Assembly (NCBI GenBank): GCA_963793305.1
Contig: CAWBZV010000005.1
Location: 928,001-992,000, forward strand
DNA length: 64,000 nt
Source: an uncultured Gemmatimonadales bacterium
GTDB lineage: Bacteria; Gemmatimonadota; Gemmatimonadetes; Gemmatimonadales; Gemmatimonadaceae
Direction of reading: 5' to 3'
Shown here piece after piece: positions 11,654 through 15,856 of this stretch; positions within the stretch are counted from its first letter, which is position 1, and every line of letters begins with the position of its first letter. The notes under the pieces are model-generated. The model made no database searches and was not told the DNA's origin. It saw only the letters and a program-made list of their open reading frames with translations. A program made the position numbers and the translations under genes.

Positions 11654-11917
11654 ATGTATATCGCGATGGGCCTCTGTGCCCTCATGCTCGCCGCCGGGCC
11701 TGGCATCACGAAAGACCAGGCTCAACGGACGGCGATCGCCGCAGTGCGCGGTGGAACGGTGAAGTCCGAGCGCCAGGCCACTGAGGCAGGTAAGCCTGTG
11801 TACGAGTTCGACATCAATGTCGCCAACAAGGGATTTGTCGAGCTTGTCACCGTCGACGAGAACACCGGCAAAGTGGTCGGTGAGACGTACGACGGTCCTC
11901 AAATGAGACACGGGTAA
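11654..11917 (+). CDS. PepSY domain protein
   Basis: Signal peptide, ITKDQAQRTA, VYEFDI, VTVDENTGKVV; GGAGG RBS. Confidence 0.85.
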   Translation: MYIAMGLCALMLAAGPGITKDQAQRTAIAAVRGGTVKSERQATEAGKPVYEFDINVANKGFVELVTVDENTGKVVGETYDGPQMRHG

Positions 11918-11955
11918 GCTAGATTCTCCTCTCGTCGTCAATACGGGAGGAGTCG

Positions 11956-12805
11956 ATGGGCCTGGATGCATCATTGGGCCGACGCCACCTGCTGACGCTG
12001 GGCGTCGGCTCAGTGATAACTGCGTCGCTCCGTACTCTGTTACGCCAACCGCCGCCGCAGGGTTGTGCGCCGCCGATCCCGCAGCATCACGAGCCCGCGA
12101 ACGGCGGGCCGTGCCCCTATCCCATTCCATGGCTCGACAAGAACGGCAACCATAACCAGGCCGCCGGCCCGAACGTCGAGCTGTCCAGCATCTATCACTT
12201 CAAGGGACAGCTCGCTCGAATGCAGCGGCTTCCACGGCATGGGAACGGACAATGCCGGCAACCGGCTTGCCTGGGGCACTCCTACGACGGACTACAGCGT
12301 CATGTCCGGCGAGTACTGGGCGGCGCGCACGGCGCACCAGGCGATATTCGCCCACACATGACTGACCGTGTTCAAGGGGCCGGCGGTCCCGACGAACCAG
12401 ATCCACGATTTTCATCCACCGATCTCGCCTGAAGGCCTGTACTGGGTCACGCCCGTGCCCGCGTCGGGCCTCACGATGAGCACGGATGCTCGAACGGCTA
12501 CGATGCGCCTGACGAACGTGCCGATCATCGACCAACCACGCTGGCCAGCGATGGATGCCGAGACGACGCCCGCATTCATGGATTGCACGGTCGTGTGGAC
12601 CGCGACTGACCAGCCGGTGAAGTACGAGGACCCGATGCGGCAGTATCGCTTTGAGGGGCACATCGCGACCGCGCAACTCGAGGCGACCGTTCGCGTCCCC
12701 GAGATGGGGTTCACCTTCACGACCGATCCGCTCGCGCAATCGAAATGCGATTTCGCCGTGATCGGGAACGCGGTCAACGGCAAATACTACGAGACGGCTC
12801 ATTGA
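11956..12805 (+). CDS. Tat-signal hypothetical protein with in-frame UGA (candidate selenoprotein); frameshift near 12220
   Basis: GGAGGAG RBS; SLGRRHLL twin-Arg motif; frame continues AHT-TGA(12359-12361)-LTVFKG into ORF 12368-12805; hairpin 12370-12397. Could instead be two genes. Confidence 0.6.
12362..12400 (+). promoter_or_regulatory. SECIS-like stem-loop
   Basis: GTTC/GAAC lower stem, GGGGCC/GGTCCC upper stem, G-initiated apical loop starting 21 nt after the UGA. Confidence 0.45.
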
Positions 12806-14142
12806 CCGCCGCGCAACTCGATCAACGTACCGACCAGGAGGTCGTGCGCGTGGTCTTCGCGTACCTCGCGTGCGCGACGATCTGGCTGCTGGTCGGAACG
12901 GGGATCGGGTTCTATGTCGCGCTCAAGTTCGTCTGGCCCGATCTGGGCGTCGCGAGCTTTCTGTCGGAGCCGCGGCTCCGGCCCGTCCACACGAATCTCG
13001 TGCTCTTCGGGTGGGCCTCGCTCGCCCAGATCGCGATGGCGCTGCTCGTCGTGCCGCGCACGTCGCGGGCCTTGTTGTTCAACTCCCGCTTGGCGTGGAT
13101 CAGCCTCATCGCCATCAACATCTCGCTGGTGACCGGTACGATCTGTCTCATCGCCGGCGTCAACAACGGGATGCAGGAGTACCGCGAGTACCTCTGGCCC
13201 GTGATGGCGCTCTATGTCGCGGCGCTCGTGCTGCTGCTGTACGTCCTGTATCGCACCGTGGCAAGCCGCGGGACATCGTCGATCTACATCTCGAACTGGT
13301 ACATCCTCGGCGCGTTCGCCTGGATCGCCACGCTCATCACGATCGCGTACTTGCCGTGGTACCAGCAAGGCCTGAGCGAGACCGTCATGCAGGGGTACTT
13401 CATGCACAACGCCGTCGGCATGTGGTTCACGCCGATGGTGCTGGGCCTTACGTACTACACGCTCCCGAAGCTGCTGAACAAGCCGGTGTACTCATACGCG
13501 CTCGGCGTGCTCGCCTTCTGGACACAGCTCGCGTTCTACCCAATGATCGGCGCTCACCACTTTGTCTTCAGCCCGACGCCATGGTCCCTCCAGACCGTCG
13601 CCATCGTGTTCAGCATCGGGATGGTGGTCCCGGTCGTCGCCGGCTCGGCGAACTTCCTGCTCACGATGCGCGGTGAGTGGAGCAGTGTCCGCAACAGCTA
13701 CGCGCTGCCATTCATCTTTGTCGGCGTCATCATGTACTTCGTCGCCTCGATGCAGGGAACCCTCGAGGCGTTTCGATCGCTGAACATGGTCTGGCACTTC
13801 ACGGACTTCACGGTCGCGCATTCGCACATGGCGATGTACGGATTCGTGACGTTCCTCATCTGGGGCTCGGTCTACGGGCTCGTGCCCTCGCTCACGAAGC
13901 GGCATCCGCCGCTCGTGCCGGTCGGCATGCATTTCTGGCTGGCGTTGATCGGGCTCACGATCTACGCCACGTCGATGATGGTCGGTGGCACGCTGCGCGG
14001 CCTGTCGTGGATCCAGAGCGCACCGTTCATCGACTCGGTGTCGTTGATGGCGCCCTACTGGACCGCCCGCGCGCTCGGCGGCGGTCTCATGGTCCTGTCG
14101 CACCTCGTGTTCGCGTACAACGTGTGGCGGATGCGGCCATGA
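12802..14142 (+). CDS. ccoN: cbb3-type-like heme-copper oxidase subunit I
   Basis: RLRPVHTNLVLFGW, EYREY, YISNWY, HNAVG, YPMIGAHH, HFTDFTVAHSH; about 12 TM helices; TTG start overlaps the upstream stop. Confidence 0.88.
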   Translation: MTAAQLDQRTDQEVVRVVFAYLACATIWLLVGTGIGFYVALKFVWPDLGVASFLSEPRLRPVHTNLVLFGWASLAQIAMALLVVPRTSRALLFNSRLAWISLIAINISLVTGTICLIAGVNNGMQEYREYLWPVMALYVAALVLLLYVLYRTVASRGTSSIYISNWYILGAFAWIATLITIAYLPWYQQGLSETVMQGYFMHNAVGMWFTPMVLGLTYYTLPKLLNKPVYSYALGVLAFWTQLAFYPMIGAHHFVFSPTPWSLQTVAIVFSIGMVVPVVAGSANFLLTMRGEWSSVRNSYALPFIFVGVIMYFVASMQGTLEAFRSLNMVWHFTDFTVAHSHMAMYGFVTFLIWGSVYGLVPSLTKRHPPLVPVGMHFWLALIGLTIYATSMMVGGTLRGLSWIQSAPFIDSVSLMAPYWTARALGGGLMVLSHLVFAYNVWRMRP

Positions 14143-15035
14143 TGCACCTCAACACGCATAAGAATCTGCCGCTGCTGTTCGGCCTCGCGTCGGGCGGATT
14201 CGTGGTTCTGAGCCTCATCATCGGGGTCGGTCCATCTCTTTGGGTACAGCGGCACAACGCCCCGCTCCCAGGCTCGACCCCACTGACCGCCGAGGAACAG
14301 GCAGGCCTCCGGGTCTTCGTCTCGGAGGGTTGCGGATACTGCCACACCCAGCAGATTCGCCCGCTGTCGGAGGACACGCTCTACGGTCGCCCATCGGCCC
14401 CGGGCGACTATGCCCGGCTCACGACACTCAGCCCCTGGATCCAGGTCCCGGAGATCCTCGGCACCGAACGCACGGGTCCGGACCTGAGCGACATTGCCGC
14501 GCGACAGCCGAGCGATGTCTGGCAGTACATGCACTTGTATCAGCCGCGCTCGGTTGTCCCGCAATCGATCATGCCGGCATTCCCATGGCTGTTCGGTCCC
14601 AATCGCGAACCGACTCCGCGCGCGAAGGCGCTCGTCGCGTACTTGCTGTCGCTCAAGCAAACGCCGATTGGAACGCCGAAGAGCGCGGCTGGCGGCGGGG
14701 GCGCGGCCGGCGCGCAGGTCTTCGCGACGCGCTGCGCCAGTTGCCATCAAGCATCGGGCGCTGGAGTTCCAGGGGCATTCCCACCGCTCGCCGGAGACTC
14801 GGTCGTGAACGGACCGGGAACGGCGCAGATCGACATTGTCCTCAACGGACTCCACGGCAAGGCCATCAACGGCGTGAGCTACGCGAGCGCGATGCCGGCG
14901 TGGCGCACGGTGATGTCGGACGCCGAGATCGCGGCGGTCATTACGTATGAGCGCGCGAGCTGGGGCAATCACGGCTCTCCGGTGGCGGCGACCGATGTGG
15001 CCGCCGAACGCGGCACGACATCGCCTGCGCCATGA
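14139..15035 (+). CDS. ccoO: CcoO-like subunit II fused to an additional cytochrome c
   Basis: EGCGYCHTQQIR, GTERTGPDL, PRSVVPQSIMP, second heme motif CASCH...MP. Confidence 0.85.
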   Translation: MMHLNTHKNLPLLFGLASGGFVVLSLIIGVGPSLWVQRHNAPLPGSTPLTAEEQAGLRVFVSEGCGYCHTQQIRPLSEDTLYGRPSAPGDYARLTTLSPWIQVPEILGTERTGPDLSDIAARQPSDVWQYMHLYQPRSVVPQSIMPAFPWLFGPNREPTPRAKALVAYLLSLKQTPIGTPKSAAGGGGAAGAQVFATRCASCHQASGAGVPGAFPPLAGDSVVNGPGTAQIDIVLNGLHGKAINGVSYASAMPAWRTVMSDAEIAAVITYERASWGNHGSPVAATDVAAERGTTSPAP

Positions 15036-15856
15036 CGACCCCGGCGTCGCACGGTGTCCGCATTTATCTCGACGACGGCGCGACGCCGATCGCCGAGTTC
15101 GATCCGCCGAGCGTGTTCTCGCTCGACACGGAGCGTTTGACGGATGGTCCGCACACGTTGCGGGTCGAAGCGATCGACGAATGGGGACACCGTTCCGAGC
15201 GCGTGATTCCGTTCGAGGTGCGCAACGGACCGGGGATCGCGGTCGAGGGGATCGCGGCGGGCGAGACGGTCGGCGGCCGGCGGTCGATCGTCGTCAACGC
15301 CTACGCGGCGGGTCGCGTCGAGACGTGGGAGCCAGTGCGCGCCGAGACGCCCACGCCGATCCCCTCGTGGGTGTGGGTCGTGTTCCTGGTCATGGTGGCC
15401 GCGGGGGTGTTCTACATCGCCCGCGAGTGGCAGCCGCCCGCGCGATTCGCGTCGACGCCGACATACGCGGCCTGGGCGTCGCCGACTGCGTCTCGTGCGG
15501 TCATTGCTCCGGCGACCGACCGCGGCGCCGAGTTGTTTCGGGTGACGTGCGCCAATTGCCATCAGGCGAACGGTGAGGGGCTACCAGGCGCATTTCCGCC
15601 ACTGGTCGGCGATCCCGTCGTGACTTCGTCCGATACGAAAGAGCATGCGCAGATCGTCTTGTTCGGCTTGTCCGGCCGCGTCATCGGCGGCGTGCATTAC
15701 ACCGCGCAGATGCCGGCGTGGGGTGCTCAGCTCTCTGATGAGGAGATCGCCGCGATCATGGATTACGAGCGTTCCGCGTGGGGTAACGCGGGGGCGCCAA
15801 CAACGGCGAAGTTCGTGAGCACGGTGCGCGCTGCGCACGTGACGGCGACCCCGTGA
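15032..15856 (+). CDS. membrane-anchored cytochrome c with N-terminal Ig-like domain
   Basis: LDTERLTDGPHTLRV Ig-like region, TM helix, CANCH, GAFPPL, MPAWG. Confidence 0.85.
   Translation: MTTPASHGVRIYLDDGATPIAEFDPPSVFSLDTERLTDGPHTLRVEAIDEWGHRSERVIPFEVRNGPGIAVEGIAAGETVGGRRSIVVNAYAAGRVETWEPVRAETPTPIPSWVWVVFLVMVAAGVFYIAREWQPPARFASTPTYAAWASPTASRAVIAPATDRGAELFRVTCANCHQANGEGLPGAFPPLVGDPVVTSSDTKEHAQIVLFGLSGRVIGGVHYTAQMPAWGAQLSDEEIAAIMDYERSAWGNAGAPTTAKFVSTVRAAHVTATP

Follow-up and report, generated by a model that had tools for sequence, protein, structure and literature searches.

Periplasmic formate dehydrogenase (FdnG/FdhA) combines a Tat signal with a selenocysteine (Sec) encoded by UGA, and a hairpin lies just 3' of this codon. 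Few Cys forms of FdhA are reported in PMC1794560, a likeness to the family described here. The same paper names GrdA/GrdB and SelW-like proteins as selenoproteins with very few or no Cys homologues. Catalogued selenoprotein families were mostly found through Cys/Sec pairs, and present discovery methods depend on Cys homologues (PMC12013277, PMC13188914). The latter, a 2026 prokaryotic selenoprotein catalogue, lists its families mostly by Pfam or NCBIfam accession. The deep-Sep authors state (PMC12013277) that their method may miss families without Cys homologues.

Here we analyse a stretch of 64,000 nucleotides from an uncultured Gemmatimonadales bacterium (the window). A first-pass annotation had proposed a Tat-exported selenoprotein at 11956-12805. 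The data argue strongly that this interval is one gene, with its UGA very probably read as Sec and a product likely exported by Tat. This reading is based on the conserved UGA, its flanks and the hairpin. It is also based on the Sec machinery, on a contig from a second assembly (X1), and on an AlphaFold2 (AF2) barrel built from both halves. Within it, we infer Sec insertion, Tat export and Sec as the functional residue.

The gene is on the forward strand. A Shine-Dalgarno-like sequence, GGGAGGAG (11945..11952), can be read directly 3 nt upstream of the ATG. The start codon and the N-terminal coding part occupy 11956..12219 (88 codons), with a twin-arginine signal (SLGRRHLLTLGVG...) and a conserved PYPIPWLDKNGNHNQ block. 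Translation from the ATG at 11956 gives the N-terminus MGLDASLGRRHLLTLGVG. At 12219..12220 there is AA, where relatives and the second contig have one A. This +1 indel breaks the frame in this assembly only. The middle coding part follows in frame 2 (12221..12358, 46 codons), and its last residues are ...AIFAHT. Then comes the in-frame TGA (12359..12361), the predicted Sec codon, which is kept across both clades of the family. The C-terminal coding part (12362..12802, 147 codons) reads LTVFKGPAVP...IHDFHPPISPEGLYWV...IIDQPRWPA...NGKYYETAH, and the true terminator is a TGA at 12803..12805. As assembled, the ORFs are 11956..12432 in frame 1, and 12065..12361 and 12368..12805 in frame 2. Removing the surplus A yields one gene of about 282 codons, with the TGA at 12359-12361 as codon 135. 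The first-pass annotation had described this single frame across the UGA, the GGAGGAG ribosome-binding site, the twin-Arg N-terminus and the ORF layout. All of them are present in the sequence as it claimed.

The frames of the window meet at GCT CGA A TGC. The homologue P0004 reads ...HFKGKLARCNGFRGMG here, which leaves one surplus A at 12219/12220, and intact homologues read ...KLARCNGF... across the junction. In all relatives examined, the two gene parts lie in one frame. We compared positions 11900-12900 with contigs of four public runs (X1-X4). The X1 contig (5138 nt, depth 8.67) spans this interval with no other letters, and its single gap is the base left out at 12219. Otherwise, 1001/1001 bases match. 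Run X1 may be the source of the window; it would then count as a second assembly rather than as an independent organism. Since the X1 contig does not have the extra A, an assembly error is the probable cause of the frameshift. The first-pass annotation had removed this base as extra, and both the best contig and the single open frame of the relatives agree with that. The identity of the TGA at 12359-12361 is also upheld, as it is unchanged in the contigs of X1, X2, X3 and X4.

These observations bear on a different reading, in which the gene is a decaying pseudogene and the frameshift and the TGA are both real lesions. The window as assembled needs two repairs. However, the X1 contig does not have the first lesion, and the second is ancestral and universal in the family. 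Moreover, both halves of the window gene are 75-88% identical to their closest intact relatives. A pseudogene is very improbable. The other indel-type frame breaks of the window, mentioned in the first-pass annotation, may be the same kind of artefact. Given the probable assembly indel found here, a similar check is warranted for other indel "pseudogenes" of this assembly.

With the read-through translation as query, a protein search matched 985 proteins. Among the best 120, 117 were 119-163 aa and three were long. The common length is that of calls starting right after the TGA, and the short proteins inspected do begin there. An exhaustive profile search gave 662 representatives. In most of them the sequence stops at profile position 129 or 130, or begins near 131, just past the Sec column. 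On the Sec reading, about 1000 database proteins would be fragments of this one family (985 matches; 662 representatives).

At the DNA level, scanning a single genome from each species yielded 251 relatives, of which 80 loci were kept, all from MAGs. The carriers are Acidobacteriota, Nitrospirota, Syntrophorhabdales, Verrucomicrobia, Myxococcaceae and one betaproteobacterium. In the window's phylum, carriers were 2/201 genomes sampled, that is, one besides the window's own. This carrier and the 80 kept loci make up the 81 relatives of the near clade (the window's clade). The Sec column is TGA in all 81, which come from other genomes, and in the window. Their true terminators are TGA (31), TAG (23) and TAA (19), counted in the 73 loci where the first pattern found them. 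The flanks read FTHI-U-LTLF, with a mean column identity of 62% (72 full-length proteins).

The proteins P0202, P0204 and P0255 define a far clade, about 30% identical to the window's clade. An hhalign comparison (99.9%, E 4.7e-37) shows that the near and far clades are homologous. A metagenome scan for the far clade confirmed 472/600 matched stretches, and 80 loci were kept (L101-L180). The Sec column is again TGA in 80/80. Here the true terminators are TAA (23), TAG (19) and TGA (17) in 59 loci, and 4 more ended at the contig end. TAA or TAG occurs at the Sec column in none of the 161 loci of both clades, and neither does TGC or TGT. As the first-pass annotation expected of a selenoprotein, homologues keep the TGA and stay in frame (81/81 near, 80/80 far).

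Two adjacent genes would read differently: a Tat-signal protein stopping at the TGA, and a downstream 145-aa protein, the arrangement given by gene callers, with the hairpin acting in coupling or attenuation. The GTG at 12368 sits 3 codons past the TGA in the window, and the 119-163 aa of 117 of the best 120 database proteins are the length of post-TGA calls. Both points fit two genes. However, no Shine-Dalgarno precedes this GTG; the upstream sequence bears out the first-pass annotation on this. In most relatives, too, the stop has no start codon close to it. In the near clade, the first in-frame ATG/GTG/TTG is at least 8 codons past the TGA in 61/82 loci. In the far clade, it falls within 3 codons of the TGA in only 1/76. 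Likewise, the stop is solely TGA in 161/161 loci while the true terminators are mixed, in-frame conservation runs through it, and AF2 builds one barrel from both halves. We give the two-gene arrangement almost no credence.

We inspected the residues at the Sec column in the 12 proteins spanning it, from the best 150 of the 662 representatives. The residue is Ser in P0122, Glu in P0123, Cys in P0255 and W in P0125, P0202 and P0204. The remaining six look garbled around this column. The Ser form sits on a 266-kb genome contig. Ser and Glu forms are also without other motifs, with DQPRWP changed to DQPGGP or DQPDWP and HDFHPP to HDLHPG or HLLHAP. The one candidate Cys homologue, P0255, is a protein entry from a short JGI contig. 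Judged from these entries, Cys forms of the family appear nearly absent.

W stands at the Sec column in six of the database proteins inspected (P0004, P0005, P0017, P0125, P0202 and P0204), which raises the question of another residue at the UGA. A suppressor or an altered code could insert Trp, Cys or Gly instead of Sec. However, five of these six proteins derive from JGI contigs of 1.1-1.8 kb. In addition, 90%-identity clusters contain both the W form and a 140-aa form ending exactly before the W, and the far-clade DNA has TGA in 80/80 loci. For these reasons, we infer that the W comes from gene calls that read TGA as Trp. Such entries could mislead homology-based searches. Full-length JGI entries with W on contigs of 1.1-1.8 kb are P0004, P0005, P0017, P0202, P0204, P0273 and P0277. 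The genetic code is standard and TGA is not reassigned, since it ends 5/10 genes checked in the window. TGA thus terminates ordinary window genes, and both the hairpin and the complete Sec machinery agree with Sec. Insertion of another residue is extremely unlikely.

The window's genome (G000, 92% complete) encodes SelA (455 bits) and a SelB wing domain in a 623-aa frame. Its selD (G000:C11:59733-60940; L088, L093) carries one in-frame TGA. Downstream of this gene, at a distance of about 190 nt, there is a tRNA-Sec (65.7 bits, anticodon TCA). SelA was found in 13/13 carrier genomes tested. The first-pass annotation had suggested co-occurrence with Sec genes as a check, and in the carriers it is seen for SelA. 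The background frequency of SelA is 163/201 and 159/201 sampled genomes of two phyla (about 80%), in tallies that include the unpublished genomes G229, G254, G357, G057 and G157, which are used for no other claim here. Since about 80% of sampled genomes have SelA, its co-occurrence discriminates weakly; it fits but proves little. In the proposed mechanism, the UGA at 12359-12361 would be decoded as Sec by the standard bacterial SelB/tRNA-Sec route. A hairpin starting 14 nt downstream would guide the insertion, and the folded product would then be exported by the Tat pathway.

The SECIS-like hairpin covers 12370..12397. Its lower stem pairs GTTC (12370-12373) with GAAC (12394-12397), and its upper stem pairs GGGGCC (12376-12381) with GGTCCC (12385-12390). 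The loop GGC (12382-12384) begins 21 nt after the A of TGA, and the predicted fold has both stems. The bSECISearch limits place the apical loop 16-37 nt past the UGA, with a G early in the loop. The window's loop lies within this distance and has an early G (criteria applied by hand). An Rfam scan of 12200-12600 gave two chance-level rows only (E 6.6 and 6.8). Taken alone, the window hairpin shows no stability beyond that of shuffles (-14.3 kcal/mol, z 0.19, with 105/200 shuffles folding as well). The signal above chance is therefore comparative.

The RNAalifold consensus had a bulge in the stem, and an uninterrupted 7-bp helix was tested instead. This conserved helix starts 14 nt past the TGA. 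In the near clade (73 sequences), 93.3% of the cells of this upper stem are paired, against 82.5% in shuffles, and 0/500 shuffles reach this value. With the partners slid, pairing is 38-62%. Compensatory changes occur at pairs 26-42 (GC 36/AU 25), 30-38 (AU 37/GC 17/GU 11) and 32-36 (AU 40/CG 30). At all three, one of the paired bases falls on a third codon position (alignment A2). As an example, an Ala codon ends in U after CAG (Gln) and in G after CCG (Pro) in the same alignment. Because one partner of each switching pair is a third position, these changes point to the RNA, and not the protein, as the target of selection. The far clade, in the same columns and register, has 85.7% of cells paired against 70.3% in shuffles, with a compensatory change in all 7 pairs.

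The lower GTTC/GAAC stem is partly conserved. It is 74.7% paired, and its outer pairs are unpaired in 29/73 and 45/73 sequences. Thus, of the stem-loop described in the first-pass annotation, both stems and the loop at 21 nt are present in the window. The upper stem shows covariation in the near and the far clade at one common register, whereas the lower stem is kept in part. Many far-clade genes (L101-L180) show a predicted outer helix that encloses the apical hairpin. In this predicted fold, the Leu-Asp-Leu codons right after the UGA (CUGGAUCU) pair with the Gln-Ile-His codons (AGAUCCAG).

The RR pair is invariant in 72/72 aligned near-clade relatives and in 40/40 across both clades. Examples of the motif are TRRSFLSTTL, SRRDILKSSAL and SRRQFIGT. 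They fit the S/T-R-R-x-F/L-L/I pattern, followed by a hydrophobic stretch, that marks the N-terminus of Tat substrates. The Pfam TAT_signal model stays below its cut-off (17.1 and 20.1 bits vs 22.7). The protein is likely exported by Tat; that it is periplasmic is a prediction made from the invariant RR pair alone. The N-terminal block of the window's subclade (11956-12130 in the window; L053, L058, L060, L078 and L082) has two extra Cys (C-A-P-P-I-P ... N-G-G-x-C-P-Y-P-I-P-W), and most other members are without them. This pair may form a disulfide or act as an additional ligand pair.

AF2 models were made from family alignments. The near-clade model (L078) has a mean pLDDT of 78.7, and its blocks from residue 81 are mostly at 83-98, with one at 67. 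The far-clade model (L119) has a mean pLDDT of 86.4. Both models are all-beta, and strands from either side of Sec form one barrel or domain. Neither model had a Foldseek match in the PDB at E up to 0.001, and VIA-align wide gave nothing but generic up-and-down barrels with Z of at most 9.6. The best rows were 9nh2_A for the near model (Z 9.6, rmsd 3.9 over 139 residues) and 1p4t_A for the far model (Z 9.0, rmsd 4.4 over 143 residues). The tool describes such Z values as common for unmatched models, and sequence identity in the best rows is 4-9%.

An outer-membrane 8-stranded barrel, instead of a soluble periplasmic protein, would agree with the best structural rows, which include NspA, OmpW, OmpA and PagL (Z 7.3-9.6), and with the far-clade proteins ending in ...NGVFF. 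However, these Z values are at background level, and the soluble CghA, Fsa2, AttH and YceI score alike. The near clade has no C-terminal aromatic residue, and the invariant Tat motif speaks for a product that is exported as a folded protein. We regard insertion in the outer membrane as very improbable.

For the function, we searched for a conserved neighbour, a cofactor motif or a structural relative supporting a particular role, and found none. No cluster of neighbours exceeded 9/81 near loci or 7/80 far loci. Pfam matches on 139 flanking ORFs were heterogeneous: DUF202/DUF302 four times, ECF sigma with zf-HC2 four times, and AhpC/TSA twice. OsmC, DsbD_2, DsrE and multicopper oxidase were each matched once among these ORFs. 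These families are too thin to support a function. Downstream of the gene, at 12844-15856, the window holds a divergent C-family haem-copper oxidase cluster of the cbb3 type. It begins with a CcoN-like subunit (432 aa, TIGR00780 247 bits vs a cut-off of 583); next come a CcoO-cytochrome c fusion and one more cytochrome c protein. We rejected the gene as an accessory subunit of this oxidase: CcoN, CcoO-cytochrome c and the second cytochrome c stand beside 0/81 relatives (at most 6 kb a side).

Because nothing conserved adjoins the gene, its function is read from the residue pattern alone. The polar residues invariant in both clades include Sec, the Asp of QIHDF and one His within the N-terminal block, as well as two other Asp, two Glu and one Asn. 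The His of the QIHDF pair is nearly invariant across both clades. This pattern would suit a periplasmic redox enzyme with Sec as the nucleophile and the QIHDF His/Asp pair as its helper, a tentative proposal to which we give somewhat less than an even chance. As a guess, His138 (H-x-U) and His158 would also assist in the window's clade, where they are kept; the far clade has F and N.

The main competing view of the function accepts Sec but takes it as a ligand, not a nucleophile. A Sec/His barrel would bind a metal or cofactor at a site made of H-x-U and HDxH (in the window's clade), and the protein would be a periplasmic carrier, chaperone or sensor. The near-clade invariants include H71, H86, H138, Sec140 and H158. 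Tat export often accompanies cofactor loading in the cytoplasm. Many predicted selenoproteins are tied to metals, according to PMC13188914. Conversely, H138 and H158 are F and N in the far clade. Near Sec, only Sec and the Asp of the HD pair are invariant, and the His nearly so. No metal-handling neighbour is conserved, and the fold searches single out no known metal-binding family. A ligand role is rather unlikely, and Sec as the nucleophile is the reading that we prefer.

The first-pass annotation did not recognise the protein family, and the database searches agree. In Pfam, neither the fragments nor seven full-length relatives matched a family, apart from the sub-threshold TAT_signal and one OST_IS row (E 0.24). 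NCBIfam release 20.0 gave 0 families at E up to 0.1, and a PDB sequence-profile search gave 0 matches at E up to 10. Every source-given name among the best matches is "hypothetical protein". DUF1838 was considered and rejected. Its ESM Atlas lead was only 0.83, and its model was unmatched in the gene's own genome (six frames), though also in all 14 control genomes. The family is not described in the accessible sections of the literature searched, including PMC13188914, PMC12013277, PMC13326102 and PMC1794560; Table S2 of BSepDB or Haft and Tolstoy's work on selenoprotein neighbourhoods could hold it. The BSepDB supplement up to, but not including, Table S2 has 0 matches to four family motifs. 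The recoding mechanism is standard, and the protein family itself appears uncatalogued.

Its recognition as a selenoprotein family would correct the annotation and add to the prokaryotic selenoproteome a family with no Pfam, NCBIfam or PDB relative. The family is present in 251 species-level genomes, and the far clade alone is estimated at 1200 metagenome stretches. The hosts are abundant, mostly uncultured soil bacteria. Since Cys forms are nearly absent, pipelines that depend on Cys/Sec pairs would miss the family, which is a concrete example of this blind spot. The retention of Sec in 161/161 loci at about 30% identity between clades suggests a periplasmic chemistry that Cys does not serve. 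In a broader and still speculative reading, the two clades would form an obligate-Sec superfamily of Tat-exported beta-barrel enzymes. They would carry out periplasmic Sec-His(-Asp) chemistry beyond cysteine in Acidobacteriota, Nitrospirota, Syntrophorhabdales, Gemmatimonadota and other soil and peat bacteria. Cys-dependent pipelines and split gene calls would have hidden them. We hold this to be possible, at a little under an even chance.

Compared with known systems, the predicted models are similar in core architecture to the barrels NspA/OmpW/OmpA, to the soluble CghA/Fsa2, AttH and YceI, and to TbpB/hemophilin. However, these proteins are not selenoproteins, and their identity to the models is 4-9% in the best rows. 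To our knowledge, none of these up-and-down barrel proteins is a Tat substrate. GrdA/GrdB and SelW-like proteins are cytoplasmic, with unrelated folds, partly known functions and no homology to this family. FdnG/FdhA is a molybdopterin enzyme of about 1000 aa, whereas the family described here is a predicted beta-barrel of about 280 aa with no sequence or fold relation to it. The window family also has no partner subunits nearby, unlike the FdnG/FdhA type. Finally, the catalogued "hypothetical" families (NCBIfam NF04xxxx) differ in that none of their models matches the window family, which is almost without Cys forms. Nevertheless, these families, which PMC13188914 lists, are recognised in the same way: their database entries are truncated, an in-frame TGA is conserved and a hairpin lies downstream of it.
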